Part shown: positions 1-64,000 of the stretch, in pieces
Layout of the letters: each line of letters opens with the position of its first letter
How positions within the stretch are numbered: position 1 is the first letter of the stretch
Translations under genes and position numbers: made by a program
Notes under the pieces: model-generated
Seen by the model: only the letters and a program-made list of their open reading frames with translations
What the model was told of the DNA's origin: nothing
The model's database searches: none
Source: a virus
DNA: 64,000 nt
Virus record (IMG/VR): IMGVR_UViG_3300043466_001817
Coordinates: 1 to 64,000 of that record
Direction: 5' to 3' (one strand)

Positions 1-450
1 CCAAGGCATCCAAGGGAACACTGGAGCAACTGGTGCCACTGGAGCAACTGGTGCCACTGGTGCTCAAGGCATTCAAGGCATTCAAGGAAACACTGGTGCC
101 ACTGGTGCCACTGGTGCCACTGGAGCCCAAGGCATTCAAGGAAACACTGGTGCCACTGGTGCCACTGGAGCCCAAGGTATCCAAGGGAACACTGGAGCAA
201 CTGGTGCTACTGGAGCCCAAGGTATCCAAGGGAACACTGGAGCAACTGGTGCTACTGGAGCCCAAGGTATCCAAGGGAACACTGGAGCAACTGGTGCCAC
301 TGGAGCAACTGGTGCCACTGGAGCCCAAGGTATCCAAGGGAACACTGGAGCAACTGGTGCCACTGGAGCCCAAGGCATCCAAGGGAACACTGGAGCAACT
401 GGTGCCACTGGAGCCCAAGGCATCCAAGGAAACACTGGTGCCACTGGTCC
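1..450 (+). repeat. Tandem 9/18/36-bp repeats encoding collagen triplets (second tract at about 1075-1370)
   Basis: Repeated actggtgcc / actggagca / caaggcatcc units. A 65-bp block at 440-504 is identical to 1358-1422. Confidence 0.95.
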
Positions 451-2764: not shown

Positions 2765-5049
2765 TGTTTCTGCCCAATTTAAGAAGTCTAGTTTTAAGAA
2801 TAATATTGCCAATAATCAGTGGACCGACACCTCCGGGACCAACTGGGCCTACTGCAAGTACATTTTTATTTGTTAATGGTAGACAAATAACATCCAATCA
2901 TGGTTTAAATGAAAATATTGGAACTTTATCATCAGACAATCCAAGACAAGTTGGAGCAAACAATTGGGCTGTTCTGGCAAAAGGTGTAAACGTTAGTTCG
3001 TCTGGATTTATGGTTGCTATAAGATCTGGAGGATCTTTATGGTCATGGGGTGCGGGGACTATTGGACAAACAGGATTATCTACCATATTAACAAGAAGTA
3101 GCCCATCACAAATAGGTTCTTTTACAGATTGGTCAAAAATTTCTGCTGGCACATATACGTGTGCAGGTGTGAGGACAAATGGTACTTTATGGGCTTGGGG
3201 AAGGAATAATTTTGGACAACTTGGTCAAGGAAATGTAACTATTAGATCAAGTCCTGTTCAAATTGGATCTGATACAAATTGGTCCGATGTACTTGTAGGT
3301 GAATATCATTGCATAGCATTAAAAACTAATGGAACATTATGGACATGGGGAAATAATGCTAGCGGACAATTAGGTTTAGGTGTAGCGGGTACAGGACAAA
3401 GTGTTCCTGTTCAAATAGGAACTGGAACAAATTGGTCTAAAATAGCAATCGGATCAAGAAGTAGTGGTGCAATAACAAATACTGGTCAATTATGGGTTTG
3501 GGGTTTTAATGGATATGGTATGTTGGGTTTGGGAGATACCGTCAATAGATCATCACCAGTACAAGTTGGTGCTTTAACAGATTGGAATTCTTTATCTTTT
3601 GGCTCTACAAACTATGGTAGCAGACACGCAGCGGCAACTAAAACAAATGGAACTCTTTGGACGTGGGGAACTAATAATTATGGACAGTTAGGCCAAAATA
3701 ACACAACAAACAGATCAAGTCCGGTTCAGGTTGGAACTGACACATCATGGTCCTTGGCAGAAGTTTTTAGATATGGATTTTTAGCAATAAAAACAGGCAC
3801 TCTTTGGTTTTCTGGAAGAAATACATATGGTCAGCTGGGATATAGAATATCAATTCGTGGTTCTAATTTGTCACCCATACAAGTAGGAACTGCAACTGGT
3901 TGGACATCATCTCCCGGAAAACTTACAACAGCATATGGATGTCATGCTATTGGCAATACTGGTGGTTTGTGGGCATGGGGAAATAATACTTCAGGACAGT
4001 TGGGATTTAATGATACTACTAATAGATCTTTACCAACTTTAGTAAGCGGAGTAACATCTTGGAATGCAGTATCACATTATTATCAGGCAGGAGTCAGAAG
4101 GGCATTAGGAGGAAGAACAGATGGAACATTATGGGCATGGGGTTCGAATGCTAGCGGTCAATTAGGTTTAGGTAATGTAACACAAAGAAATTCACCTGTA
4201 CAAATTGGAACTGGAACTGGATGGGGGATTACGGGTGGCCAATTTAGCGCTGCTCCTGATTTTTCTATAGCAGTAAAAACTGATGGAACCTTGTGGGCGT
4301 GGGGATTGGGGTCATATGGTATGTTGGGTTTGGGTGATACTGTTAGTAGATCATCACCAGTTCAAGTTGGTGCTTTAACAGATTGGTCAAAAGTTTCTTG
4401 TGCCAGAAGACATACTTTAGCATTAAAAACTAATGGAACGTTGTGGGCATGGGGTTTGAATAGTAATGGTCAATTAGGCCAAAACAATGTAACAAATACA
4501 TCAAGTCCAGTCCAAATTGGGACAGCAACTGATTGGGCATTTATTTTTGCTGGTTATAGTACCTCACACGCAATAAAAACAAATGGAACTCTTTGGGCGT
4601 GGGGAAATGCATCATCGTCGCGTTTAGGATTTGGCGGTTATGGAAATTATACTTCACCGAGACAAGTTGGTTCACTGACAGATTGGTCAAAAGTTTATAG
4701 TTCTACTGGACACACAGTCGCAATAAAAACAAATGGAACTCTTTGGGTATGGGGATTTGCTACTTATGGTAGACTTGGATTAAATGATGGTGTTAATAGA
4801 ATTAGTCCAGTGCAAATAGGTTCAGAAACAAACTGGGGAGTTGCAAAACCGGGTGCAGCACACACAGTTGCAATAAAAACAAATGGAACTCTTTGGGCTT
4901 GGGGACTTCACTCAGGTGGAAGATGTGCATTTGCTGGAACTGCAAATTATGCTGCTAATATCTCTTCTCCAGTTCAAGTAGGTTCTCTAAATACATGGAG
5001 TAACGTTTCTCCAAGATTTACTGATACTGTTTTTGGATTAAAAACTTAA
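2764..5049 (+). CDS. RCC1-repeat beta-propeller protein, probably tail or receptor associated
   Basis: About 13 repeats of AIKTNGTLWAWGxNxxGQLG...RSSPVQ(V/I)G; directly follows the fibre gene. Confidence 0.9.
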   Translation: MFLPNLRSLVLRIILPIISGPTPPGPTGPTASTFLFVNGRQITSNHGLNENIGTLSSDNPRQVGANNWAVLAKGVNVSSSGFMVAIRSGGSLWSWGAGTIGQTGLSTILTRSSPSQIGSFTDWSKISAGTYTCAGVRTNGTLWAWGRNNFGQLGQGNVTIRSSPVQIGSDTNWSDVLVGEYHCIALKTNGTLWTWGNNASGQLGLGVAGTGQSVPVQIGTGTNWSKIAIGSRSSGAITNTGQLWVWGFNGYGMLGLGDTVNRSSPVQVGALTDWNSLSFGSTNYGSRHAAATKTNGTLWTWGTNNYGQLGQNNTTNRSSPVQVGTDTSWSLAEVFRYGFLAIKTGTLWFSGRNTYGQLGYRISIRGSNLSPIQVGTATGWTSSPGKLTTAYGCHAIGNTGGLWAWGNNTSGQLGFNDTTNRSLPTLVSGVTSWNAVSHYYQAGVRRALGGRTDGTLWAWGSNASGQLGLGNVTQRNSPVQIGTGTGWGITGGQFSAAPDFSIAVKTDGTLWAWGLGSYGMLGLGDTVSRSSPVQVGALTDWSKVSCARRHTLALKTNGTLWAWGLNSNGQLGQNNVTNTSSPVQIGTATDWAFIFAGYSTSHAIKTNGTLWAWGNASSSRLGFGGYGNYTSPRQVGSLTDWSKVYSSTGHTVAIKTNGTLWVWGFATYGRLGLNDGVNRISPVQIGSETNWGVAKPGAAHTVAIKTNGTLWAWGLHSGGRCAFAGTANYAANISSPVQVGSLNTWSNVSPRFTDTVFGLKT

Positions 5050-51744: not shown

Positions 51745-52188
51745 ATGAACTACCTAACAAATTATTACAAAAATTTATGCGAACAACTAGAAATGCAACT
51801 TGCCCTATTGGAAGCCAAAGTAAAGGATTCCAAGAAGAAGAGCAAGGGCAAGAAACTTGACCCAGTAGGCAAGGAAGATGGTGACATCGACAATGATGGT
51901 GATGAGGATGAAACTGATGGATACCTAGCCAACCGTCGTAAGGCAATCGGTAAGGCAATGAAAAATAAAAAGAAAGTTGTCAAGGAAGAAACTTCAACAG
52001 GAGTAGAGGGAGACTACGAAGGGGAGATGTCAAAAGGGGAACTCCAATACACAATTCAAAATGCCCAAGAAATTTTAGATCAACTCAAGGATGATGATGA
52101 ACTAGAAGCATGGGTACAGAGCAAGATTACAAAGGCTTCTGACTATATTTCTACAGTAAAAGATTATATGGCTGGTAGGAATAAGTAA
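51745..52188 (+). CDS. Conserved T4-like phage late protein
   Basis: KLDPVGKEDGDIDNDGD.D..D.YL.NRRKAI and DYEGEM...LEAWVQSKITKA.DY motifs. Confidence 0.8.
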   Translation: MNYLTNYYKNLCEQLEMQLALLEAKVKDSKKKSKGKKLDPVGKEDGDIDNDGDEDETDGYLANRRKAIGKAMKNKKKVVKEETSTGVEGDYEGEMSKGELQYTIQNAQEILDQLKDDDELEAWVQSKITKASDYISTVKDYMAGRNK

Positions 52189-52327
52189 GGGGGTAATACG
52201 AGGGATAGAGTAAGGAAGATTGGGTAAAAAATATTGAAGAATTTTAAGAAAATTTGGAGTTAGACCCACACTCTCTAACACCCTTTAAACCTCTTATAAG
52301 CCATCCAGAGCCCGTCCAGCGCACAAA

Positions 52328-52357
52328 AGGCCCCCGGAGTCATGTCCGAGGGCCTTG
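52328..52357. terminator. Hairpin between convergent late and early units
   Basis: aaggccc-ccgga...tccga-gggcctt. Confidence 0.5.
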
Positions 52358-52657
52358 TCTCTAATAGCCTTATAGGCGGTCAAGCAATTACTATCAAGAT
52401 TTTGACAAATTTTAGAGAATTTTTGACAATATTAGCACAACCCTGTCCAGAGTTCTCCATACCGTCCGCCATATGAGCAATGTAAGGGTTCTTATCGACA
52501 ATATCTTTAATTATTTTGACACTTGGGCTACATGCCGTCCGAGCACCGTCCAGATAACGTCCAGGGCCCGTACCGTCCGAGAATATATTAAAATTTTTGA
52601 GAATATTATAACCTACCTACCTAGGGGCCCTACACCCTGATAGTAGATAAAAAAATT

Positions 52658-52894
52658 TTAGATTCTTCCAGATCCCGTCCCGCTGGATCCCGTCCACAAA
52701 TTTTCAATAATTCTTGGAACGTCTGATATCTGAACAATTCCCAGACCCACCAGCGCACCGATAACCGTGGCGCTCACGAGTCCGATAACCCCCACAGTTC
52801 TCCAGAGAACAGCCCAGACGAGTCCGATAACCCCCCATGCCCCATAACTAGATCTACGGTACACACTAGGGCGATAGGGGGTTATCGGTCGCAT
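52658..52894 (-). CDS. Putative small membrane protein
   Basis: Hydrophobic GVIGLV repeats; TTGACT...TATACT promoter upstream. Confidence 0.45.
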   Translation of the reverse strand: MRPITPYRPSVYRRSSYGAWGVIGLVWAVLWRTVGVIGLVSATVIGALVGLGIVQISDVPRIIENLWTGSSGTGSGRI

Positions 52895-53025
52895 GAACAG
52901 TCCCCTAGTATACACCACAGGACCCATAAGTCAAGTAATGGCAAGGACTTACGATCCAGTGAAGACGTCCAGTTCTCTGGAGAAATGAATTAAATTTAAT
53001 ACCGTCCAGCCCGTCCCGTCCGCGA

Positions 53026-53090
53026 CTACTATCAGGGAGCGCAAATATTATGCAAAAAATCAAAGTTCCTCTGAGGAACTTTGATAGTAG
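53026..53090. repeat. Early-region palindromic element, copy 1
   Basis: CTACTATCAGG...atcaaagttcctc-t-gaggaactttgat-AGTAG. Confidence 0.92.
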
Positions 53091-53166
53091 CCGGTATGTA
53101 TACAATAGAACAACCCCCGGGCCTGGCTCTCTCCTTCCAGTCCGGGGGCGTTCCTACGGGGATTAC

Positions 53167-55269
53167 TTACTTGCAGGGCAAGCTGTAGATGGCTTCCGTC
53201 CCCCGCTTGAGGGGCTGGCCCGCCACGATGTCCACATACCGGGAGAGGAACACGCGGCTACCGCTGCGCTTCGCCATCGTCTTGACGAAGGTGTTCTTGA
53301 CCTTCGTGAAGGTTCCGCTGTCCACGATGGCATCCTCGTCCTTGACGATCTTCGGGGTCTTGACGAGGAAGTACGCATCGTACCCGTGGAAGATCTCGTC
53401 GTGGACAACGATGCAGCCGTCCTTGTACGCCTCCTTCGCAGCAGCGAACCGGGGAGAGGCGGCGAGGTTCTGATACGAACCCCTCTCCTTCGCGGCCACG
53501 CAGTACTGGTAGAAGAACGATTCGGTCAGGGCGTTGGGGCCAACCATCATCCCGACGAGGCGGGCGTTGAACTTCTCACGCAGGGAGTGCAGCATGATGC
53601 CGACGATCTCGTTGCCCAAGCACGAAGTCATCTCGCGGGAAGGCATCCGGGTGATCGTTCCCGTGATGTTGTTCTGCACCGTCAGCACCCCGTCCTGACC
53701 GACGCTGTACATGGAGTAGATATCGTCGCCCTTCGCGCCACGGATGCCGATGCCGTTGGGCGAACCGTCCGTGATGTGCATGAGCGTGGGGATCTGAATG
53801 TTGTTGGCCTTGATCCACTCCGCGACGAACTGGGACGCGATGGCGACGGCCTCCACCGTGGGCGTACCGCCCAACCGGATCGCAGCGGGCCGCTTGTTCT
53901 GAACGATGGACTCGTAGAGGTAGGCCATGACCTTCTCGCGCTTGTCCGCACCGTCCCGCGACGAGGCAATGTTGATGAGGCGGGCCTCGTTGAGCGTGAG
54001 GGTGTTCATCTGCTGTCCGACGATCTTCGGCTCAAACATCCTGCTGAAGTCGCTGTAGTACTTCGTGGGGTTCTTCTTGCGCCACTCATCGAACTTGCCG
54101 CCGTGGAACGCGGCCTGATTCACTTCGGTGTAGCCGAACACCTCAAAGGGGATCTTCGCCTTCTCGCAGAACCAAACCAACTGGCAGACCTGAAGGAAGC
54201 AGTCCGACAGAGAGTGCTGCATCGACCCGCTGAAGTCCATGAGGAACACGATGCCGTGGTTCTTGCCGTCCTGCTTGACGATCTTGGAAAGGAAGATATC
54301 GTCGTGGGTGCGGTACTGGTGGAGGCGGTCAAGGTTCAACTGGCCCGTCTGCTTGGGCCGCTCCTTGCGGATCGCGTCCGCTGCCTTGCGGCGCTCAAAC
54401 TGCATGACGAGCTGCCGAACGAACGAATCGGAGTCCTTGACGAACTGGCGGTAGCCGGTCAGATCGACCTGCGGGTACGAGGTCTGCTTCTCAAACTCGT
54501 CAAAGATGTAATCCGTGGGGACGATGGCAGCGTTGACATCCTCCAACATGGGGATGACAACCGTGGGCGAGTGAACCTTCGGGCCGGACTTCTTGCCGTG
54601 GCCCGCGATGTCAGTCTCCACGATCCCGTCCTGCATGGCTTCGGTGCCGATCGCGTCGGCCTGACCCTGCTGCTGCTCTGCCTTCTCGCGGGCAGCCTGC
54701 ATCTGCGGCGACTGGTAGATGATCTTGGCGAGGGCGATGCACTCCTCGAAAGTCTCGCAACCATCGACCGCATCCACGATGGCCTGCTCGTTCTCGTCCA
54801 TCGGAACGGTGACGAAACCGGGAACGCCCCACTTGAAGTGGATGTTCACCTTGTTGACGATGTTCGCGTCGGTCAAGTCCATCTTGGCGATGCCGAACAT
54901 ATCCAAGTCGTTGATCTCCTTGTAGCCCAAGAAGAAGTCGCGGCGGGTGCCGGGGAACTTGTCCTTCATCTTCTTCTCAATGCGGACATCCTCAATGACA
55001 TTGGCGATGCGCTGAAGCAACTCGATGTTGAACCCCTCCGCTTCGGCCTGATCGAACAGCACCTTCGACTGCTCGTAGGGAGTCCACAGGGCGTGGCTGA
55101 TCTCATGGGCGACGAGCATGGTCTGCACCGTTTCGGAAACCTTCCAGACGGGCATGACGAGGTGGCGGTTCTCAACATCGAACGACGCGGTGGCGGCGTT
55201 GGCATCGAAGGAGAACGAAATGTTTTCGGAGGCGAGGGCGCGAGCGAAGATGGAGAGAGAAGTGTTCAT
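53167..55269 (-). CDS. CobT-like metallopeptidase (HExxH) + VWA protein
   Basis: AHEISH, NVIEDVRIE, MIDAS DFSGSM, GGTP and ITDG motifs; leaderless start at 55269. Confidence 0.9.
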   Translation of the reverse strand: MNTSLSIFARALASENISFSFDANAATASFDVENRHLVMPVWKVSETVQTMLVAHEISHALWTPYEQSKVLFDQAEAEGFNIELLQRIANVIEDVRIEKKMKDKFPGTRRDFFLGYKEINDLDMFGIAKMDLTDANIVNKVNIHFKWGVPGFVTVPMDENEQAIVDAVDGCETFEECIALAKIIYQSPQMQAAREKAEQQQGQADAIGTEAMQDGIVETDIAGHGKKSGPKVHSPTVVIPMLEDVNAAIVPTDYIFDEFEKQTSYPQVDLTGYRQFVKDSDSFVRQLVMQFERRKAADAIRKERPKQTGQLNLDRLHQYRTHDDIFLSKIVKQDGKNHGIVFLMDFSGSMQHSLSDCFLQVCQLVWFCEKAKIPFEVFGYTEVNQAAFHGGKFDEWRKKNPTKYYSDFSRMFEPKIVGQQMNTLTLNEARLINIASSRDGADKREKVMAYLYESIVQNKRPAAIRLGGTPTVEAVAIASQFVAEWIKANNIQIPTLMHITDGSPNGIGIRGAKGDDIYSMYSVGQDGVLTVQNNITGTITRMPSREMTSCLGNEIVGIMLHSLREKFNARLVGMMVGPNALTESFFYQYCVAAKERGSYQNLAASPRFAAAKEAYKDGCIVVHDEIFHGYDAYFLVKTPKIVKDEDAIVDSGTFTKVKNTFVKTMAKRSGSRVFLSRYVDIVAGQPLKRGTEAIYSLPCK

Positions 55270-55365
55270 GCGCTCATTGTAGCAGGTCTGTAGGTGAATG
55301 CAACTACTAGGATCGGAAAATGGCAATTCTTTTTTGCGTCCGATAAGGGACCGGCCCCGTCCAGG

Positions 55366-55434
55366 CTACTATCAGGCCGTCAAGCAAATAACACAAAATT
55401 CTCAAAGATTCCTCAGAGGAATCTTTGATAGTAG
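55366..55434. repeat. Early-region palindromic element, copy 2
   Basis: CTACTATCAGG...tcaaagattcctc-a-gaggaatctttga-TAGTAG. Confidence 0.92.
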
Positions 55435-55494
55435 CCCCTGCCTGGAAGATCCCCTGCCCCTTTCGGAGCAGGGGATCTTGTCCTCTGAACAGCA

Positions 55495-55716
55495 TCAGAC
55501 CGTGGCCGGTGCGATCAGGGAGGTCAGGTCGTAGACCCCCTTGCTGACCGCGCTCTTGTGATCCTTCAGCACCCAAGTGGGGATGCCCTTCATGTTGATC
55601 GCCTGGGCGACGGCCAGCAGGTCGGCCTTGCTGAAGCTGTCGGTGGGGCGGTTGTGAACCTCCGCGTAGTGCTTGGCGGCGGCGACGAAACGGTTGCGCT
55701 TATTGAGGTACGGCAT
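55495..55716 (-). CDS. Small protein resembling the N-terminal domain of the adjacent AAA+ ATPase
   Basis: IPTWVLKD...KGVYDL versus LPAWLVTD...RGLYSI. Confidence 0.7.
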   Translation of the reverse strand: MPYLNKRNRFVAAAKHYAEVHNRPTDSFSKADLLAVAQAINMKGIPTWVLKDHKSAVSKGVYDLTSLIAPATV

Positions 55717-55734
55717 TGTCAGAATCTCCTTGTG

Positions 55735-56997
55735 TTAGGCGTTGAGAGCGTAGGAAGTGTCAGTCGGGGCAGCGACAGGCTGCGCCTTCTTGTCCGCACC
55801 CTCCGGCATCGGCAGGATGGTGGGGTCGATCTTGGTGTAGAGGTCGAAGAAAGCCTTCTGCGTGGCGGGGTCGAACCGCGTCAGCGTCAACTTGATCGCC
55901 TTCTCCTTGTCCGCGAAGATGGCGAACGCCTTGCAGACCTCCTCCAAGCGGCGGGTCGTGATGATGTCATCCAAGCCGCCCTCCTTGAAGCCCAAGCGGA
56001 TCGTTTCCGCCCACTTGGTGAGGTACTGGGCGAACTCCTTGTCCTCGCGCCCGTAAGCCTTCATCTTGCGGATGATGATGCGGGCCTCCACGGTGCGATC
56101 CGCGTAGTCCTGCTCAAACCAGTACGAGAAGCGGTCGAGGAAAGCCTCGTTCATCACTCGCGTCCCGACGAAGCGGTCGGACTCGCCCTTGCCCTTCGTG
56201 TTGGCGGTGGCGACGGCGTTGAAGCCGACAGACGGGCGGACATACTGCCCGATCTTCTTGAGGTAGATGCCCTTGCCCTCAAGGACGGGCTGGAGGCACA
56301 TCATCCGCTCCGAACCCAAGTCGATCTCGTCCAACAGCAGGATGGCACCCTTCTGCATGGCCTGAACGACGGGGCCGTAGACGAACTTGGTTTCGCCGTT
56401 GACGAGGCGGAAGCCGCCCAACAGATCGTCCTCGTCGGTTTCGGAGGTGATGTTGACGCGGACGCACTCGCGGGCGTTGGCCGCGCAGATCTGCTCAATC
56501 ATCGTGGTCTTGCCGTTGCCCGACAGACCCGTGATGTAGATGGGCGCGAACTGCTTGGAGGCGAGGATGGTGGCGATGGTGTCGTAGTGGCCCCACGGAA
56601 CGAAGGTGTCGTTCTTGGAGGGAACGAGCGAGACATCGGACATGGGGAGGACGAGGTTGAAGTTGTTGGTGTTGCTGTTCATGGGCGTAATCTTATCACA
56701 AGTTTCGGTCGGAGTCAAGTCCACGGAAGGAAGATTCTCAACAATCTTTTGGGGAAATTCGAGGTTCAGGCGGGCACCGGCCACTTCGACTTCGGGGATG
56801 CTGTACAGGCCGCGACCCAGGCGACGAGCCTGATCAGTCACGAGCCAAGCGGGCAGGCACGAGTACGAGACCCGGTGCGTCTGCTTGCAGAGGTTGAGTG
56901 CGGTCAGGCACTCGTCACGGGTGAAAGAGGTGCGAAGCCCGAACGACAGGGCGAGGGATTCGAGGAAGTGCTGCTTACGAAGATCGATGCTGTTCAT
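55735..56997 (-). CDS. CobS/MoxR-like AAA+ ATPase (second in-frame start at 56682)
   Basis: GLSGNGKT, LLLDEID, ATANTKGKG and NEAFLDRF motifs. Confidence 0.93.
   Translation of the reverse strand: MNSIDLRKQHFLESLALSFGLRTSFTRDECLTALNLCKQTHRVSYSCLPAWLVTDQARRLGRGLYSIPEVEVAGARLNLEFPQKIVENLPSVDLTPTETCDKITPMNSNTNNFNLVLPMSDVSLVPSKNDTFVPWGHYDTIATILASKQFAPIYITGLSGNGKTTMIEQICAANARECVRVNITSETDEDDLLGGFRLVNGETKFVYGPVVQAMQKGAILLLDEIDLGSERMMCLQPVLEGKGIYLKKIGQYVRPSVGFNAVATANTKGKGESDRFVGTRVMNEAFLDRFSYWFEQDYADRTVEARIIIRKMKAYGREDKEFAQYLTKWAETIRLGFKEGGLDDIITTRRLEEVCKAFAIFADKEKAIKLTLTRFDPATQKAFFDLYTKIDPTILPMPEGADKKAQPVAAPTDTSYALNA
56690..56718 (-). promoter_or_regulatory. Internal sigma70 promoter within the AAA+ ORF
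   Basis: TTGACT-N17-TAAGAT, 7 nt before the in-frame ATG at 56682. Confidence 0.7.
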
Positions 56998-57110
56998 GAG
57001 AACATTGTAATCTATGAGGCGAAGATTGCAAGACCAATCTTCCATTATTCTCAAGATTGTCTCCAGGTCCGATAACCGGCCCCAGAGTCTGGTGCTGTCC
57101 GTTCTGTCCA

Positions 57111-57178
57111 CTACTATCAGGGAAATAATATAATATCTCGGAAAAAATCAAAGACCGCCTGGCGGTCTTTGATAGTAG
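57111..57178. repeat. Early-region palindromic element, copy 3
   Basis: CTACTATCAGG...atcaaagaccgcc-t-ggcggtctttgat-AGTAG. Confidence 0.92.
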
Positions 57179-57253
57179 TGGCAAATAAAAACCCCCAGCC
57201 TAGCAACTGGGGGTCGGAGGAACATCCTCCTTGAAGAAAGAAACGAACCTGAA

Positions 57254-57598
57254 TCAGCCCTTCAGGTACTCCGAAGCCGGGCCACTCTTGCAGCAGCCGG
57301 TACCATCGTTGTAGTAGGACTTCTTGCAGTCCTTGTTCTCGTTGTGGCACTTCTCCCACAGAACATCAACCTCGCGGTGCAGTTGCTCACGGGAGCCTTC
57401 CATCTCGCGCTTGAGTTCCGCAATCTTCTCGTTGCAGGAACGACCGCAGGCAAGCACCTCGTCAATTACATACCGCTCGCTGGCCTCCGTGTAGGTACGG
57501 ATGCTGCGAATCTTGTTGTCGATGTAGTTCTTGACGATCAGGCCGCAAGCAAGCACACCGAAGGCGACGGCAAAGATCAAAGCGTAGTTCTCGTTCAT
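57254..57598 (-). CDS. Single-TM coiled-coil protein
   Basis: N-terminal TM; AGGAG SD; own sigma70 promoter. Confidence 0.7.
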   Translation of the reverse strand: MNENYALIFAVAFGVLACGLIVKNYIDNKIRSIRTYTEASERYVIDEVLACGRSCNEKIAELKREMEGSREQLHREVDVLWEKCHNENKDCKKSYYNDGTGCCKSGPASEYLKG

Positions 57599-57657
57599 CT
57601 GAATCTCCTTGTTGTTGGTGGTATTATACCACCTGGTTGTGGGTTGTCAAGTCTGAA

Positions 57658-57741
57658 TAGGACGGGTGAGATTCGAACTCACGGTGCATAAAGCGGGCAA
57701 TTATAAGTCGCCTGCTGCTCTCCATCGCAGCACGCCGTCCT
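57658..57741 (-). tRNA. Atypical tRNA with TAT (Ile) anticodon
   Basis: AGGACGG/CCGTCCT acceptor stem, ggcga-ct-TAT-aa-ttgcc anticodon arm, gtgag-TTCGAAT-ctcac T-arm; 6-bp D-stem and enlarged variable region. Confidence 0.75.
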
Positions 57742-57888
57742 GTGTGAAGCCTTTTTACGGATGCTCCTTTGTCCGTGCATTCGCAGAATGCCTCTGTGCG
57801 GTTTTATGACTACCGCCAAAACTTATAATATAATCTGCATTGTGTTTCTCAATAGTGCATTGTAGCACCTCTTTGTTCTGTGTCAAGG

Positions 57889-57962
57889 CGTTTCCGGGGG
57901 GACTCGAACCCTCAACCTGCCGCTTAGAAGGCGGCTGCTCTATCCGGTTGAGCTACGGAAAC
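57889..57962 (-). tRNA. tRNA-Arg(TCT)
   Basis: gccgc-ct-TCT-aa-gcggc anticodon arm. Confidence 0.93.
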
Positions 57963-58055
57963 ATTCGGAAGGAGTACTCTACGGTCTAGGGAATCCCATT
58001 TTCCGACTTTTCGTCCTTCCTTATTGGATGAACTTGAAGAAGTCCATCTCGTTAG

Positions 58056-58140
58056 TGGGATTGGTGGGACTTGAACCCACAAGACTTTTGAGGTCGGCAG
58101 ATTTTGAGTCTGCTGCGTATGCCGATTCCGCCACAATCCC
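58056..58140 (-). tRNA. tRNA-Leu(CAA)
   Basis: gcaga-ct-CAA-aa-tctgc anticodon arm; long variable arm. Confidence 0.93.
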
Positions 58141-58155
58141 GATGCGCCCATTATA

Positions 58156-58431
58156 TCACACTATGGGCGGGTTGTCAACCCTATCTTCTAGGGAGAATTT
58201 TTCTTCAATTTCCTCGAAGAATTCCGAATTGGCTCGGACCACCTGCTCATGGAGCCGGTCAACGTTGAGGCATTGGGCTGCGTTGTCCACCTCATCGAAG
58301 TACTGATTGATCAGTTCCTTCGGCGGGTTGCCGTTGCCATGGAGAATGTGTTCCATGATGCGGTCTGCGACAATGACCACGCGGTCATAAGCCTGGAGCG
58401 AGCTGATGTAGTGCTGTTCTGAAATCTTCAT
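58156..58431 (-). CDS. Hypothetical protein
   Basis: MKISEQHY... start with AGGAGG SD. Confidence 0.65.
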   Translation of the reverse strand: MKISEQHYISSLQAYDRVVIVADRIMEHILHGNGNPPKELINQYFDEVDNAAQCLNVDRLHEQVVRANSEFFEEIEEKFSLEDRVDNPPIV

Positions 58432-58445
58432 AGTGTCCTCCTGAA

Positions 58446-58518
58446 TGCCTCCGGTGGGGTTCGAACCCACGACCAATAGATTAAAAGTCTACTGCGCTAC
58501 CAACTGCGCTACAGAGGC
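58446..58518 (-). tRNA. tRNA-Lys(TTT)
   Basis: gtaga-ct-TTT-aa-tctat anticodon arm. Confidence 0.93.
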
Positions 58519-58557
58519 GAGATGCCCATTATATCCGATGGGCGCGGTGAAGTCAAG

Positions 58558-58953
58558 TCAGTCCTTGTCGTTGTTTCCCAGTTCCTCTTCGATGTCGTTG
58601 ATGTACTCCCGCCGGTCGTGGGGGAAGTGCTTGCGCTCCAACTCGCCCGCGAACTCGTCGTAGGTCATGGACATCATGTCGCCCAAGAGCATCATGAACG
58701 CCGCGTCACCTGCCGTGACATCCTTCGGACGCTCGTTGCGCTCCTTCGCATCCGCGAGTTCCTGGGTCGCGTAGGCCATCGCAGCGGAGGCGACGAGGCG
58801 GAGCTTCTGATCCTTGAAGAAGGTCGGGTTCCGCATCACCAGTTCCACGAGGCTGTAGATCACCTCGTGGATGCTGGGCTTGAACTGCTCCATCATGGGG
58901 TGCGGCTCGTTGTTGTCGAAGAAGTTGCTGAAGTTGTTCGTCGGGTCAGGCAT
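58558..58953 (-). CDS. Hypothetical early protein
   Basis: 131-aa ORF with GC3-rich codons. Confidence 0.7.
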   Translation of the reverse strand: MPDPTNNFSNFFDNNEPHPMMEQFKPSIHEVIYSLVELVMRNPTFFKDQKLRLVASAAMAYATQELADAKERNERPKDVTAGDAAFMMLLGDMMSMTYDEFAGELERKHFPHDRREYINDIEEELGNNDKD

Positions 58954-59176
58954 TGTTGGCTTCCTTGATCTGTGCGTGAAGGTTGAGGATGAACTCGTAC
59001 TCGTCGTCGGTGGTCATGTCGGGGTCGGCCATCTTGGTCAGCATCACATACGCTGACCCCATTCGCATCACCTTCTCCGGGTCGGTGTCCCAGTCCGGGT
59101 TAGCGAAGATGAAGTCGGAGATGCTGTTCAGCAGGTCGCTGACATTGCAGGTGGTGGGCTTCTTGGGCTTGTTCAT
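58946..59176 (-). CDS. Hypothetical early protein
   Basis: TTGACA-N17-TACAAT-N6-ATG. Confidence 0.7.
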   Translation of the reverse strand: MNKPKKPTTCNVSDLLNSISDFIFANPDWDTDPEKVMRMGSAYVMLTKMADPDMTTDDEYEFILNLHAQIKEANNA

Positions 59177-59194
59177 GGTGGTATTGTACCGAAG

Positions 59195-59524
59195 TCAGAG
59201 GGGGCTGTCAAGCAGGGAATAGTCGATATTCGAAACAGAAACCTCGAGGCCCCAATGCTCCAAAGTTTTCTTCATATCGTCCACGAAAGTCAACTGGAGC
59301 ATCGGGTCGCAGTCGAAGTTGAGACAGGCGGTGATCATGCAGAACTCGTTCGCAATGTCGAACTGGAAGGTGGGGTTCTGTCCACGGGTCACGGCGTACC
59401 TATCGTCCGCAAAGTTCCATGCATGAAGGTAAGCGTTCGACATCTCCTTGAGGCGCATGGTAGCCCAAGACCGGCTCCGTGCCGTCTTGTGCATAACGAC
59501 GGTGATGTTGCTGTAGAGTGCCAT
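59195..59524 (-). CDS. Hypothetical early protein
   Basis: 109-aa ORF coupled to the upstream gene. Confidence 0.65.
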   Translation of the reverse strand: MALYSNITVVMHKTARSRSWATMRLKEMSNAYLHAWNFADDRYAVTRGQNPTFQFDIANEFCMITACLNFDCDPMLQLTFVDDMKKTLEHWGLEVSVSNIDYSLLDSPL

Positions 59525-59760
59525 CAGTCGAAGTCCTCGTCATCCACGAAGTCAGATGCGTCGAAGTCGCTCATCTCCGGGATGTCATCGTCGTGTTCGG
59601 TGTAGTCATCGTCCGCGTCGTAGAGGCCGATCATGCGGCGAGCCTCCGCTTCGCTGTAGCCTTCGGCCATCAACTCTTCGATGGCCTCCTCGTCGGTCAT
59701 CTCCTCAATGGCGTGGTCGTACTGATCGTCGGTGTTGTCGAAGTCGTTGTCAATGTCCAT
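59524..59760 (-). CDS. Extremely acidic 78-aa early protein
   Basis: MDIDNDFDNTDDQYDHAIEEMTDEE...; TTGCAT...TATACT-N6-ATG. Confidence 0.7.
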   Translation of the reverse strand: MDIDNDFDNTDDQYDHAIEEMTDEEAIEELMAEGYSEAEARRMIGLYDADDDYTEHDDDIPEMSDFDASDFVDDEDFD

Positions 59761-59854
59761 GCGCGCAGTATAGCCTATACCGGCGGGGATGCAAGCGGTA
59801 GCATCCAAGAAAACGAAATATATTTTGCGTCCCATAACGTCCAGGTGGTCCGGG

Positions 59855-59917
59855 CTACTATCAGGCGGCGGCCGGTCCTATAAGAAATCAAAAATGCCTG
59901 GGCATTTTTGATAGTAG
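59855..59917. repeat. Early-region palindromic element, copy 4
   Basis: CTACTATCAGG...atcaaaaatgcc-tg-ggcatttttgat-AGTAG. Confidence 0.92.
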
Positions 59918-60058
59918 TCAAATAAAATGCCCCACCTTGAAGAAGGTGGGGCGTGGGAGCTACCGTCCAAACTCCCGCGTTTCTCCGCACAGCGCTGTAC
60001 GGATCTTTTTTATGCCGCTTGTGGCCACACAGGGCATCCGGTTTTGATGGTTTGGGCG

Positions 60059-60292
60059 TTAGTCCTTGAACTCGCATCCCGTCACGACATAGCGAAGTCC
60101 GCCAAGCGTGAAGGTCAGGGTGAACGCGCAGAAGTACATCACGCCAGCGCAGAAGAGTCCGACTGCGTTGAGCAGCCACGAAATGTCGTTGGGGGCGAGG
60201 AATGCGTAGGTAAAGATCATCGGGAGGAACCACGCCGCAATCAGGACGAGGGCACCGATGAAACGGTCGATGTAGGAGGTGGTGAGGTTCAT
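60059..60292 (-). CDS. Small 2-TM membrane protein
   Basis: Two hydrophobic helices; TTGACA-N17-TACAAT-N6-ATG. Confidence 0.7.
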   Translation of the reverse strand: MNLTTSYIDRFIGALVLIAAWFLPMIFTYAFLAPNDISWLLNAVGLFCAGVMYFCAFTLTFTLGGLRYVVTGCEFKD

Positions 60293-60323
60293 GGGAGTAT
60301 TGTACCTGGGTTGCAGGCGAATG

Positions 60324-60623
60324 TCAAGCCCAGTTCAGCATCTTCTCCGTCTTGGGCGAGAATCCCATGATCCCGGTGATCTTGTCCTCACCGATCAGGA
60401 TCCAGTCCTTCTTGGTGATGTCGAAGGCGCAGATGTAGCCTTCGGTGGTGTGACGGAGGCCCTTCGGCAGATTGCCGCCGAGGTGACGGATGAAGGTCGC
60501 GTCCGTAGTGACCTCACGGGCAGCGGGAGTGCCGTCCTTCTTCGTGAAAGTGACCATCACGGTGTCGTTGTTGGAGAGCGAAACGCGGAGGACGGTAGCG
60601 AGAGGCAGGTCGGTGGTGTTCAT
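60324..60623 (-). CDS. WYL_2/Sm-like SH3 beta-barrel protein
   Basis: VTFTKKDGT...T.D...FDI.KKDW pattern. Confidence 0.7.
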   Translation of the reverse strand: MNTTDLPLATVLRVSLSNNDTVMVTFTKKDGTPAAREVTTDATFIRHLGGNLPKGLRHTTEGYICAFDITKKDWILIGEDKITGIMGFSPKTEKMLNWA

Positions 60624-60733
60624 GTGAGTATTGTAGCCGGTTGGGGGTGAAAGTCAAGAGGGAAAGAAAGATTTTTTGGTGGTTTCGGGAGGGGGCGGTA
60701 ACTCAACCCCCTCCCATCATGCACCACCATGAT

Positions 60734-61135
60734 TTACTGGATCAGGTCCTGCGCGGTGGGGACGCCCTGCTTCTCGAACTTCTCCGCTTCGGCCTGGAGG
60801 ATCTCGAAGAACAACTTCGGGCACTTCATCTGCAAGGCGGTGATGTTCTCACCGTTGTCCCCCGCGAGGATCGCGTCCCCGACGAGCGGCTGCTTGCAGA
60901 TGATGGAGGCGCGGGTGTTGAAGCGCGGGTTGTCGATGCACAGACCCTCCTCATCGATCCACATCATCGAATCCTCGATGTGGTTCAGCGGGACGCTGAT
61001 CGGCTGCACGAGGCGGCACGACATGATCGGGTACATCGACTCCAACGGGTTGTCGGCGTTCAGTTCCACGACGCGGACGGGCTGGTTGATGTCGGCGGGG
61101 ATCAGGATGGCGGGGATGGTGGTGATGTTCGACAC
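60734..61135 (-). CDS. DUF3846-like protein
   Basis: MWIDEEGL...FNTRAS...LVGDAILAG pattern. Confidence 0.75.
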   Translation of the reverse strand: MSNITTIPAILIPADINQPVRVVELNADNPLESMYPIMSCRLVQPISVPLNHIEDSMMWIDEEGLCIDNPRFNTRASIICKQPLVGDAILAGDNGENITALQMKCPKLFFEILQAEAEKFEKQGVPTAQDLIQ

Positions 61136-61282
61136 GGTGGTGACTCCTGCCCCTGTGGGGCAACTGGGTGATACGCGAATTGTAGCAGGTTGGCTGGCGA
61201 TTGCAAGTAGGTAGGTCGCGATTCGAAAGATTTATTTCTTTCCTCGTACCGGCCACAGGGCTCGAGCCCGTCCAGGTGGGCG

Positions 61283-61340
61283 CTACTATCAGGCGGCGTC
61301 CAATAAAATCAGAGGGCCCTAGAGGGCCCTCTGATAGTAG
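61283..61340. repeat. Early-region palindromic element, copy 5
   Basis: CTACTATCAGG...atcagagggccct-ag-agggccctctgat-AGTAG. Confidence 0.92.
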
Positions 61341-61354
61341 CCCGAGGGGCTGGC

Positions 61355-61495
61355 TCAAACTTCTCGAGCCAGTTCCCTCTTTCCCTCCCTCCGCGCCATC
61401 CGAGGGTCGCGGCTCTTCTTGCCCCAAGTCTTGGGGCGGAGCCGGATGCCTTCACGGAAAGCGTCGTGGACGAACTTGCCTGGGCGGTGCTTCAT
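61355..61495 (-). CDS. Small basic peptide (46 aa; not in the ORF track)
   Basis: MKHRPGKFVHDAFREGIRLRPKTWGKKSRDPRMARREGKRELAREV; GAGGAG SD; ATGA overlap with the upstream gene. Confidence 0.6.
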   Translation of the reverse strand: MKHRPGKFVHDAFREGIRLRPKTWGKKSRDPRMARREGKRELAREV

Positions 61496-61737
61496 CGTGT
61501 CTCCTCTAGGTCGATCAGGGCGGAATCAATCTTGATCTGAAGGCGGCGAATCGTGTCGCGCTCCGCCTTCGCTTCAGCGTAGAACGCATCATGAGCTGCG
61601 GTTTCCCGGTAGGTGTTCATTTCACGCAGCACATCCACCATAGCGGTGAACATGAAACGGGAAATAATTTCCATTTCGCGCTTCGACAATTCCACCTGCA
61701 TGGCGGGCTTGCGAATTGGCTTGAGGGTGGTGATCAT
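61492..61737 (-). CDS. Hypothetical early protein
   Basis: TTGACA...TAAGAT-N6-ATG. Confidence 0.7.
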   Translation of the reverse strand: MITTLKPIRKPAMQVELSKREMEIISRFMFTAMVDVLREMNTYRETAAHDAFYAEAKAERDTIRRLQIKIDSALIDLEETR

Positions 61738-61786
61738 GGTGGTATCTTACCTTCCTGTCCTGTCCCTGTCAATAGGGTAGGGCGGA

Positions 61787-62407
61787 TTACTCCGCCTTTC
61801 CCCTGATGATGATCCACAGAAGCGCCTGCATGTCGGCGGCGGGCATGTTCCACGAATCGGCCATGAGCCGAACGGCAGCGGCGATGGCACGGTACTCAAC
61901 GGCGCTGGGCGCATCCTTCGGCTGGCCAGCGTACTTCGACTTCGGCCCGTAGGTGAGGCCGGCAGCGCGGCACATCCAAATGTCGATCACGACCGCATCG
62001 GGGTCGCCGCCGATGGCACGGGCGAACGCGTTCGTCTTCGGCCCGCGCAGGCCGTCGAAGCCTTCGCGCTGGCAACGGTCCGCAGCGTCCAGCGCCGAAC
62101 GCAGGCCCGCAGGGCGCTGGCCCATAGCGTACTCGGCGGCCTTGCGCTTGTTGAGCGCCCAAGTAACGCGGGGCGAGAATGCCGACACGACGCTAGCGGA
62201 CACTTCGAGCGTCCACGACGGCGCGATGGTGCAGAGCGATTCCGCGAACGCGTTCGCGTCGCAGTACCATGTGCCCGCCCGCTTGATGTCGGCGGGCGTG
62301 GCCGACGCCAGCAGGGTACGGAAGCGGCCTTCGGCCTCAACGCGGACGGCGGACATGCGGGCGAGGGTAGCGGCGGACGGCTGACGGGTGGTGGTGGTGG
62401 TGATCAT
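61787..62407 (-). CDS. Conserved phage protein with HhH-glycosylase-like motifs (DUF7178-like)
   Basis: G..WY, SAFSPRVTW..N, GPKT.AF, VVIDIWM.RA and MQA..W motifs. Confidence 0.65.
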   Translation of the reverse strand: MITTTTTRQPSAATLARMSAVRVEAEGRFRTLLASATPADIKRAGTWYCDANAFAESLCTIAPSWTLEVSASVVSAFSPRVTWALNKRKAAEYAMGQRPAGLRSALDAADRCQREGFDGLRGPKTNAFARAIGGDPDAVVIDIWMCRAAGLTYGPKSKYAGQPKDAPSAVEYRAIAAAVRLMADSWNMPAADMQALLWIIIRGKAE

Positions 62408-62517
62408 GCGGTAATTGTAACCGAATGGCTACAGAATGCAATAGGGTAGCCCGCTGAAACGCAAAGAATAATTATTCATCGCGGTGCATAGTTATGCAGG
62501 GCGTCCAGGTCGTCCGG

Positions 62518-62570
62518 CTACTATCAGGCCGTCCAATAAAATCAAGATCGCCGGGCGATCTTGATAGTAG
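62518..62570. repeat. Early-region palindromic element, copy 6
   Basis: CTACTATCAGG...atcaagatcgcc-g-ggcgatcttgat-AGTAG. Confidence 0.92.
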
Positions 62571-62642
62571 CCCACAAACAACCTAGCCCCGAGCTAATCG
62601 GGGCAGGGACGAATCCTCTTCGGTTGTAAGAGCACCACCTCT

Positions 62643-62909
62643 TTAGTCTGTGGCCGGTGCGAGTGCCGCCTCCTGTCCGACGCGGATTCCTGCGCGGAAT
62701 GCGTGGATCAGTTCCAGCAGTTCCCGCTTGCTGCGGTAGCCGGGGAAGATGGCGATGCAGGCTCCGTGGGGGCCGACGAGTTGCTGTAGTTGCCATCCGC
62801 CGTATGCGCCCTGGAGGTAGTACGCACCTGGCGTGGCAGCGGTCGCCCCGACGAGTTGGTTCAGGACGCGGGTGGCGGCTTCAAGGTCGCGGATCGTGGT
62901 GTGCTTCAT
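62643..62909 (-). CDS. Hypothetical early protein
   Basis: Y.L.GAYGGWQL...GYRSKREL motif; leaderless start. Confidence 0.7.
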   Translation of the reverse strand: MKHTTIRDLEAATRVLNQLVGATAATPGAYYLQGAYGGWQLQQLVGPHGACIAIFPGYRSKRELLELIHAFRAGIRVGQEAALAPATD

Positions 62910-62998
62910 AGTGTGAACCTTACTGTATCGGGGGGCGGGAATCAAGGGGGCAGGAAAGATTTTTTACTTTCTTTCCTGCCCCCCACCGGGGGCTTGGG

Positions 62999-63403
62999 TT
63001 AGATGGTCACGGAGCGGAGGGGGCGCGTCGGGGCGCGGTCGGCCTGCTTCGAGGCCGTGTCGCGTCCGTCGATCCAGTTAGCCGCAGCGAGGAGGCCGTA
63101 GGCGACGGCCCGCATCTCGTTCGCGGTGCAGGAGCAGCCCGCCCGCTCATCGAAGGCACCGAAGAGGTTGAACGACGCCATCCGGTGGTTGGGCGACGAG
63201 AGGACGCGGACGGCGTAGGGGCCGACCGGGATCATGAACGCCGCAGCCGACTCGTGGTCGAAGCGGATGCGGGTGTAGTTGCTGCGGTTGCTGATCGTGC
63301 AGTCGCTGATGCGGTTCTCGCGCTCGTTGCTGCGGAGGTTGTCAACGGAGCGCGACGGGCTGAACACGATGTCGGTGGCGCAGGAGAAGGTGGTGGTGGT
63401 CAT
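62999..63403 (-). CDS. Hypothetical early protein
   Basis: MTTTTFSC... start with AGGAG SD. Confidence 0.65.
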   Translation of the reverse strand: MTTTTFSCATDIVFSPSRSVDNLRSNERENRISDCTISNRSNYTRIRFDHESAAAFMIPVGPYAVRVLSSPNHRMASFNLFGAFDERAGCSCTANEMRAVAYGLLAAANWIDGRDTASKQADRAPTRPLRSVTI

Positions 63404-63435
63404 GGTAGATGCTCCTAGTGAGAGGGGTGCGATTG

Positions 63436-63627
63436 TCAAGCGGTAACGCAAGATTCTGCGCGAAACTTTGCCTTGCTCCAGCGCGGGTCGGCATCGTACC
63501 CGTTGGTGAGGAGCAGGTAGCGGAACTCCTCAATGGCCTGGGCCTTGGAGTCAGCGCGAACCGTGGTGGAGTGAATGATGCCGCCGAGGGTGCAGGTGAC
63601 GCGGAAGAGTTGGGTGGTGCTGTTCAT
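63436..63627 (-). CDS. Hypothetical early protein
   Basis: TTGACT...TACCAT-N6-ATG. Confidence 0.65.
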   Translation of the reverse strand: MNSTTQLFRVTCTLGGIIHSTTVRADSKAQAIEEFRYLLLTNGYDADPRWSKAKFRAESCVTA

Positions 63628-63653
63628 GCGTGTATGGTAGCGAATCTACAATG

Positions 63654-63744
63654 GAAGTCAATACCCTTTCTCAAATATTTCTCGAGCGCCCCCAGGCGAC
63701 CGATAACCTACCGGCAGAAATATTTGAGAAAGGGTATTGACTTC
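63654..63744. promoter_or_regulatory. Back-to-back sigma70 promoters built from a perfect 29-bp inverted repeat
   Basis: 63654-63682 is the exact reverse complement of 63716-63744 (agaaatatttgagaaagggtaTTGACTtc); both promoters have a gcTACCAT -10. Confidence 0.9.
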
Positions 63745-63770
63745 GATAGCAAACTTGCTACCATTAGCGC

Positions 63771-63989
63771 ATGGACACCACCCACACCGATTCGCCCGAC
63801 AACTTCCCCTGCCAGTGCCACCTGTCGAAGTACGCCTACGAGGACGCGCTCTGCCCCGAGTGCGAGGAGCGGGAGCGGCAGCTCGAAGCCCAGGTGGAGG
63901 CCGAAGCGCTGCGCGCCGAGGCCATGGAGGAGAGGGACTGGGACGCCGATAACGATTGGCTCGCCTCAGCGGGCTGGGGCGAGATGTGA
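63771..63989 (+). CDS. Small acidic Cys-containing early protein
   Basis: CQC...CPEC and acidic tail ending DNDWLASAGWGEM; leaderless start. Confidence 0.7.
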   Translation: MDTTHTDSPDNFPCQCHLSKYAYEDALCPECEERERQLEAQVEAEALRAEAMEERDWDADNDWLASAGWGEM

Positions 63990-64000
63990 GCCCCAAATAA

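Follow-up and report, generated by a model that had tools for sequence, protein, structure and literature searches.

Box-flanked palindromes as the probable core of PeSL-type linkers in the GC-rich island of an uncultured T4-like phage clade

A repeated element in a GC-rich island

The virus contig IMGVR_UViG_3300043466_001817 from IMG/VR is 94 kb long, and its positions 1-64,000 form the 64,000-nucleotide stretch of DNA analysed here, which we call the window. The genome contains a GC-rich island of about 12 kb (52.3-64.6 kb, 52-63% GC) that is set off by sharp edges from surrounding DNA of 31-46% GC. The coding strand of the island is the minus strand, where the GC content at third codon positions is about 0.9 and where the products with Pfam and PHROG matches are encoded. 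These products are a CobT-like protein (phrog_459), a CobS-like AAA_5 ATPase (phrog_249), a DUF3846 protein and a DUF7178 protein. The island also holds small ORFans and tRNA genes, and gene content varies among relatives. Between the gene units lie six copies of an element in which a perfect palindrome is combined with two short inverted boxes. We think it probable, at roughly 0.6, that these copies are the conserved core of intergenic linkers of the promoter early stem-loop (PeSL) type that separate early units in a hyperplastic island of an uncultured T4-like clade.

The phage itself is T4-like, and its clade has no cultured member. Its family-B DNA polymerase (gp43 type) is 42% identical over the full length to gp43 of cyanomyoviruses, its CobS is about 49% identical to homologues in Pelagibacter phage HTVC008M and in cyanophages, and the CobT homologues likewise resemble proteins of pelagic and cyanobacterial T4-like phages. 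The linker DNA had no match among 50,697 deposited phage records. A chimeric assembly of the GC-rich island was ruled out because the same island with AT-rich flanks is found in many independent IMG/VR contigs.

The six copies are all on the minus strand. Copy 1 (53026-53090), which follows the CobT-like gene, consists of a box that we call BoxL, a palindrome with 13-bp arms, a U-run, a spacer and a second box, BoxR. Copy 2 (55366-55434) lies between the CobS unit and the CobT-like gene, copy 3 (57111-57178) is upstream of the CobS-like gene, copy 4 is at 59855-59917, and copies 5 (61283-61340) and 6 (62518-62570) are upstream of the DUF3846 and DUF7178 genes, respectively. An earlier, sequence-only reading of the window had described these six copies with arms of 12-13 bp, centres of 1-2 nt, a GTCC-rich lead-in, an A-run and a spacing of 1.2-2.7 kb. 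We found all of these features again, with perfect palindromes and with all six box pairs exact at the coordinates it had given. The location that it described, between the end of one minus-strand unit and the UP-like tract and sigma70-type promoter of the next, was confirmed for each copy.

The 11-mer CTACTATCAGG occurs seven times in the window compared with 0.02 expected from shuffles. The seventh occurrence (52646-52636) is the BoxL of a degenerate, stretched copy at the edge of the island (52388-52646, minus strand) that continues with four GGACG repeats and a BoxR-like TGATAGTAA at 52396-52388 and has no large palindrome. We found no further copies in the 94-kb record outside 52.3-62.6 kb. 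Palindromes of the type seen in the element number 18 in the whole 94-kb genome compared with 0-3 in each of 10 shuffles, and the six in the element are among the longest of these. An E-value-based Rfam scan of 52000-64000 returned only tRNAs and chance matches, none of which fell on the elements.

Architecture of the linkers

On the coding strand the linker starts at the end of the upstream gene, which usually has its own GC-rich hairpin with a T-rich tail (T1). This is followed by BoxL, the palindrome, the U-run, the spacer, BoxR, GGAY repeats, an A/T-rich tract, and a sigma70-type promoter. BoxL is the nine-base sequence CTACTATCA and BoxR, (CC)TGATAGTAG, is its inverse. The lowest 4-5 pairs of the palindrome (ATCAR/YTGAT) belong to BoxL. 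The U-run resembles TTTTATTGGACG and is separated from BoxR by a spacer of 3-60 nt. Beyond BoxR there are two to four direct GGAY repeats per linker that are 5 or 9-10 nt apart.

A T1 hairpin that is GC-rich with a T-rich tail precedes copy 1 at approximately 53114-53148, and a terminator scan located terminator-like T1 hairpins before copies 3 (57190-57215), 4 (59929-59952) and 6 (62586-62604), all on the minus strand. In agreement with the earlier proposal that the hairpin and U-run of the element read as an intrinsic terminator on this strand, the scan also scored the hairpins of all six copies as terminator-like. The full elements fold with energies of -19.5 to -33.4 kcal/mol and z-scores of -2.9 to -7.4. 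The sequence-only reading had also proposed two mutually exclusive folds. The choice of pairing partners for TGAT that underlies this idea amounts to branch migration over 4-5 bp, and the minimum-energy fold combines an outer BoxL:BoxR stem with a shortened inner hairpin.

Each of the six copies is followed by an A/T-rich tract and a sigma70-type promoter with a consensus in the window that is mostly TTGCAW-16-TACAAT. In four linkers of the six, a start codon follows at 6 nt from the -10 hexamer, which predicts leaderless mRNAs. After copy 6 (62407-62517, minus strand, as are all the following) the GGAY repeats and A/T-rich tract lead to TTGCAT-16-TACAAT, with the -35 hexamer at 62441 and an ATG at 62407, 6 nt past the -10. 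The region after copy 4 (59760-59854) contains GGAY repeats, an A/T-rich tract, TTGCAT-16-TATACT and a leaderless ATG at 59760. After copy 3 (56997-57110) there are GGACA repeats, a GTTATCGGAC motif and TTGCAA-16-TACAAT (57031-57004) in front of the leaderless CobS-like gene (ATG at 56997), and after copy 2 (55269-55365) there are GGAC repeats, an A/T-rich tract and TTGCAT-16-TACAAT in front of the leaderless CobT-like gene (ATG at 55269). Copy 5 is followed (61179-61282) by a GGAY repeat, an A/T-rich tract and TTGCAA-16-TACAAT, and it is the only copy in the window whose downstream gene has a leader, with a Shine-Dalgarno-like AGGAG before a GTG start codon. GGACG repeats, an A/T-rich tract and TTGACT-16-TATACT (52934-52907) follow copy 1 (52907-53025).

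The linker in related phages

Exact and mismatch-tolerant pattern scans covered the genome and related loci. The exact-pattern scan of IMG/VR detected the element in 34 stretches from about 20 contigs, and a CobS-based search added further contigs. Pooling these relatives yielded at least 82 distinct elements with 74 distinct hairpins. All copies that could be placed in whole records are within one GC-rich island of 10-12 kb in an AT-rich T4-like genome, and in five larger relatives the boxes cluster in a single GC-rich island each. We distinguished two forms of the element. The complex form (73 of 82) has a mean of 4.2 T in the 8 nt after the hairpin. In the simple form (9 of 82) the boxes directly flank the hairpin and there is no U-run, which would be the exact product expected from a deletion between two CTGAT direct repeats of the complex form. 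The mean hairpin energy of the pooled elements is -17.7 kcal/mol.

The element has a fixed polarity, with the hairpin adjoining BoxL in the orientation set by GGAY asymmetry (79 positive, 3 neutral, 0 opposite). The density of GGAY after BoxR is 2.7 per 70 nt compared with 0.18 for the complement, with spacing peaks at 5 and 9-10 nt. A promoter of the form TTGNNN-16..18-TANNNT was found within 170 nt downstream of 61 of 81 related elements compared with 7% in shuffles, and a start codon 5-8 nt past the -10, the leaderless type, in 52 of 81 compared with 1%. There is also an A/T-rich consensus upstream of the -35. The distance from box to box varies continuously from 35 to about 100 bp and shows no helical phasing.

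Evolution of the hairpins

The genomes G000 and L046 are 98.4% identical over 8 kb. The hairpin of copy 2 (55402-55428) differs between them at four positions that make up two compensated pairs, and there are no differences in the boxes. In other orthologous pairs the flanks are 90% identical and the hairpins only 41-70% identical, yet the hairpins are always perfect. The paired changes show that structure rather than sequence is kept in the palindrome, as the earlier reading had supposed.

The stems of the element contain very few G.U pairs on either strand (11/972 and 12/968, or 1.1% and 1.2%). By contrast, the adjacent T1 stems contain 76/906 (8.4%) on the coding strand versus 26/753 (3.5%) on the opposite strand. 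Both the difference between T1 and element (p = 7e-15) and that between the strands of T1 (p = 2e-5) are supported by Fisher tests. This contrast suggests that T1 behaves as an RNA structure and the hairpin of the element as a DNA palindrome. In one pair of orthologous hairpins (L058 near 5646 in G005 and L061 near 5651 in G003) the arms are identical and the 4-nt loop is exactly inverted, GTCT versus AGAC, a flip of the kind that template switching at palindromes, or an exchange of arms, typically leaves. Correction templated by the hairpin during replication may account for the perfect pairing of the hairpins, their rapid symmetric change and this flip.

The boxes and their postulated reader

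Variation in the boxes is mostly one-sided. All five elements of locus L060 have the BoxR TGATAGTTG with an unchanged BoxL (GTTG versus CTAC), and every element of L053 and L057 has the BoxR GGATAGTAG regardless of BoxL. Where BoxL ends in C, the proximal arm of the palindrome compensates and the distal BoxR remains TGATAGTAG; there are also BoxR variants that accompany an unchanged BoxL. L049 (contig 3300042453_003743; 1024-1047, 3840-3870 and 7939-7974) no longer has the large palindrome. CTACT is joined there directly to GATAGTAG, of which two or three direct copies persist between T1 and the promoter. Four elements have matching changes in both boxes, CTACTATCC with GGATAGTAG. One-sided changes that extend through a lineage point to sequence reading by a trans-acting factor. 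Thus, the boxes do not appear to be kept by pairing covariation and are most likely recognition sites for a postulated sequence-specific protein.

We considered several known readers and origins of such boxes. In the GTDB representative genomes we found 21 matches, all single and scattered. Their number is close to a rough chance estimate and none has the phage architecture, and an origin of the boxes in a host genome was rejected on this basis. A literature search for the box strings returned only primers. A T7-like promoter on the plus strand (CTACTATCAGGGAG compared with CACTATAGGGAGA) was rejected because the genes are on the opposite strand and the spacing to the upstream words does not fit; a single-subunit RNA polymerase was not found in a search that had no positive control. 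A T4 late or MotA-type promoter box was likewise rejected, given that the boxes are absent outside the island and TATAAATA is absent inside it, and AsiA was not found, again in a search with no positive control. Neither the boxes nor the GGAY words gave a good match to the sites of DnaA, IHF, LexA or Fur. An invertible-terminator switch was dismissed since the inner segment is not reversed in any copy.

The boxes include a half-site of the tetO type, CTATCA (CTATCA / TGATAG). Two of the 21 GTDB matches, in unrelated bacterial metagenome-assembled genomes (L077, 3698-3727, and L065, 890-919), are a 30-bp palindrome, CTACTATCA-GAACnnnnGTTC-TGATAGTAG, in which the pair of boxes flanks a 12-bp core. 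In the genome assigned to Actinomycetota this palindrome overlaps the start of a gene for a TetR-family regulator and is probably the operator of that gene. Unlike such operators, the half-sites in the phages are 17-84 bp apart with variable spacing. No TetR-family gene was found in five phage genomes, and the likeness to TetR operators is therefore a lead only.

Gene replacement beside the linkers

Six genomes share one order of units, namely the DUF7178, DUF3846/cl68, small-gene and tRNA, CobS, and CobT units, and every orthologous junction is occupied by the element, sometimes in a variant form. Two gene replacements were examined (cl33 versus cl68/69 and cl60 versus cl81/82). Between G003 and G005, a stretch of 89% identity spans the upstream gene, T1, the element and the GGAC repeats and is lost within the A/T-rich tract and promoter, beyond which the two genomes have differing promoter-plus-gene cassettes. 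G004 and G005 match again from just past the stop codon that ends the replaced upstream gene, ahead of a conserved 3' hairpin and T1. With breakpoints on either side of it, the linker stays constant and what varies is the promoter-plus-gene cassette. The earlier suggestion to compare gene order and content between elements thus had a divided outcome, with a fixed order in six genomes and a gene content that changes beside the linkers. Inspection by eye of G005 oriented 3600-3690 (within L041) pointed to a further, probable tRNA-like gene that separates the conserved linker from the replaced gene upstream.

Pfam searches of five partial genomes (50-75% complete) found no Phage_integrase (PF00589), Resolvase or Y1_Tnp (PF01797); for PF00589, searched in G000-G004, the controls were positive, although the incompleteness of the genomes means that absence is not proven. 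We saw no target-site duplications and no empty sites. Mobility of the kind known from miniature inverted-repeat transposable elements (MITEs) or repetitive extragenic palindromes (REPs) was rejected because the sites are all occupied and orthologous and show no target duplications. Like REP, BIME and REPIN palindromes, the elements are palindromic intergenic repeats at gene ends with a conserved GTAG/CTAC end motif. However, REP copies share the sequence of their palindrome and are spread by a RAYT transposase, whereas each orthologous site here has its own palindrome and PF01797 was not found.

Interpretation and alternatives

PeSLs have been described in the T4-type phages RB49/phi1, T4/PST and KVP40/nt-1 (Arbiol et al. 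2010, PMC2839356; Comeau et al. 2014, PMC4122927). Their defining parts are a terminator stem-loop, a sigma70-like promoter and an A/T-rich tract, and they are found beside indels in hyperplastic regions (PMC2839356, PMC4122927). The linkers described here resemble them in being composite cassettes that recur between genes in the variable early regions of T4-like phages, and in having the terminator stem-loop first, with the A/T-rich tract and the sigma70-like promoter downstream of it. They also adjoin gene replacements with breakpoints in the A/T-rich or promoter part, and the details of their consensus are lineage-specific. By sequence, they agree with PeSLs in five points, which are location, promoter, A/T-rich tract, terminator stem-loop and association with replacements. 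Formation of mini-circles through recombination between neighbouring cassettes is a further trait of PeSLs. The comparison with PeSLs that the sequence-only reading had offered was apt, and its statement that the element is not a described one does not hold for the layout, which is that of published PeSLs. What is new is the invariant inverted boxes, the GGAY repeats on the gene strand only, the strand-symmetric Watson-Crick hairpins and the leaderless starts. The linkers differ from published PeSLs in having tandem hairpins, T1 and a second one (T2, the palindrome with its U-run) that is clamped by invariant inverted boxes of 9-11 nt, and in having direct GGAY repeats between BoxR and the UP-like tract. 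In addition, their stems are perfectly Watson-Crick as opposed to the stems of phi1 PeSLs, which show G-T pairs, and the stem-loop is about 100-150 nt upstream of the promoter rather than in or beside it.

On this basis we propose that T1 would stop the transcripts of the upstream unit and that T2 would serve as a second, back-up intrinsic terminator. The linker would thus insulate the units from read-through and restart transcription, as PeSLs do, and it may provide a homology patch for cassette exchange via the general recombination of the phage. The invariant boxes, and probably the GGAY repeats too, would be read by a sequence-specific protein rather than act as RNA pairing partners, and the palindrome would be maintained at the DNA level. 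The layout, its single orientation, its conservation throughout the clade, the compensatory evolution of the hairpins and the swapping of promoter-plus-gene cassettes beside an unchanged linker can all be read from the sequences.

Several points weigh against this PeSL-type linker model. Termination, promoter activity and early timing are deduced from consensus alone, and termination at T2 does not seem to be universal in view of the nine simple copies that have no U-run. Published PeSLs end in a Shine-Dalgarno sequence and a start codon; most of the genes here are leaderless. The continuous, unphased variation in box-to-box distance is awkward for a single dimer that touches both boxes on B-DNA, the small proteins of the island had no usable match to a DNA-binding family in Pfam and PHROG scans, and the matching changes in four elements are a weak sign, and the sole hint, of pairing between the boxes. 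Finally, the pooled elements share common ancestry and are not phylogenetically independent, so their counts overstate the number of events.

One alternative at the RNA level is that BoxL and BoxR close around the inner hairpin in read-through transcripts to form a bulged duplex of about 20 bp that acts as an RNase III-like cut site or a 3'-end stabiliser. The full elements do fold in this way with the energies and z-scores given above, flanking bases often add 1-3 pairs to the outer stem, and the four elements with matching box changes fit the idea. We nevertheless consider it unlikely, given the lineage-wide uncompensated variants (GTTG versus CTAC in 5/5 elements of L060, and GGATAGTAG in L053 and L057), the compensation of a BoxL ending in C by the proximal arm and not by the distal BoxR, the retention of direct BoxR copies in L049, and G.U pairs that are nearly absent and show no strand asymmetry, unlike those of T1. 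Also, T1 lies upstream and should already stop most transcripts. The ordinary tandem intrinsic terminator is another parallel in that a perfect, GC-containing hairpin with a U-run follows a first terminator on the coding strand, and with the exception of the nine simple forms the elements have the stable hairpin and U-rich tract of this class. However, ordinary intrinsic terminators have no invariant flanking boxes, and G.U pairs are avoided in the elements. A terminator could be made switchable if a factor on the RNA or DNA of BoxL unzipped the 4-5 stem pairs beside the U-run to allow later read-through of T2. BoxL invariably shares 3-5 nt with the base of the 5' arm, directly across from the pairs adjoining the U-run, and delayed-early expression through read-through is established in T4 and serves as a precedent. 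Still, T1 has no boxes and would go on terminating upstream, the nine simple copies keep both boxes and lack the U-run, BoxR is transcribed after the termination decision and would have no role, and no candidate factor was found. Such a switch therefore seems distinctly improbable.

At the DNA level, the palindrome could form a cruciform or single-stranded hairpin upstream of strong promoters that acts as a supercoil buffer, an insulator, a signal for staged DNA entry or the site of a box-clamped, structure-specific protein. The Watson-Crick stems on both strands, in contrast with T1, the centres of just 1-2 nt in the six window copies, the A/T-rich sequence on one flank, the exact inversion of one loop between orthologues and the fast, symmetric change of the hairpins are all consistent with this. 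However, arms of 12-13 bp are near the lower limit for cruciform extrusion, hairpin-templated repair could equally produce perfect symmetry in a palindrome that has no function, the island has no structure-specific enzyme linked to it, and there is a single clear loop flip. We regard a purely structural element as just as improbable as the switch. A related reading, also unlikely, is that the box-clamped palindrome is a DNA-level site, a cruciform or single-stranded hairpin with a sequence-specific base, that is read by a phage or host protein and marks the boundaries of cassettes. It might do so as an insulator that senses supercoiling, or as a structure-specific point of exchange, and would be attC-like without an integron integrase. 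True site-specific recombination sites of the attC type, as the sequence-only reading had suggested, or a mobile MITE- or REP-like repeat that shuffles cassettes, are in our judgement very improbable. The likeness to integron attC sites is in the short conserved inverted end boxes around a variable, self-complementary centre at cassette boundaries that folds as a bulged single-strand hairpin, and gene replacements do adjoin the elements. The boxes, CTACTATCA/TGATAGTAG, are however unrelated to the R''/R' core sites (RYYYAAC / GTTRRRY), and each cassette has its own promoter. Moreover, the unit order is identical in the six genomes, the breakpoints fall in the A/T-rich tract and promoter or past the stop codon instead of in the boxes, each site is orthologous and has its own hairpin, and neither an IntI-type or other tyrosine recombinase nor a serine recombinase or Y1 transposase was found in the five partial genomes.

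To our knowledge, no mechanism other than PeSLs has been described for the modular exchange of cassettes in T4-type phages, and PeSLs have so far been reported in a few cultured lineages. The clade examined here suggests that the PeSL design is open to elaboration, in this case by invariant inverted boxes, iterated GGAY words and leaderless promoters. Since the T1 hairpins are G.U-rich and those of the elements strictly Watson-Crick, the content of G.U pairs may offer a simple sequence test for telling RNA-level palindromes from DNA-level ones in the intergenic regions of phages. A box-binding protein, if there is one, would give a handle on how a T4-like phage organises or times an early gene island of host-like composition, and if the boundaries are indeed read at the DNA level, the elements would be a new class of phage boundary element. 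The interest of the elements lies in which factor would read the boxes and why the palindrome would be kept at the DNA level.

Other features of the island

A second class of promoter with the consensus TTGACA-17-TAnAAT is found inside units on the minus strand at 57623-60327. These unit-internal promoters (60327, 59211, 58556, 58178, 57886 and 57650) adjoin the previous open reading frame (ORF) or tRNA and have no boxed apparatus upstream, suggesting that the element tracks unit boundaries and not promoters as such. The GTTATCGGAC word noted after copy 3 is also found upstream of several promoters and in a divergent hub near 63700.

The last unit of the island (52650-52934, minus strand), which starts from the promoter at 52934-52907, has a sole ORF of 9 codons and is possibly non-coding. 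Three copies of a repeat centred on GGTTATCGG, two of which read GGGGGTTATCGGACTCGT, come after this ORF. The amino-acid composition of the island products looks ordinary, which indicates that the GC excess is mainly at third codon positions. Apparently leaderless starts were also seen around 63737-64300 on the plus strand, and the prevalence of such starts could point to a host that often translates leaderless mRNAs.

The minus strand at 57658-58518 encodes four tRNAs (Ile-UAU, Arg-UCU, Leu-CAA and Lys-UUU), and each of their genes seems to have a consensus promoter to itself. The tRNA-Arg shares 91% identity with one from the Thermus phage phiLo.

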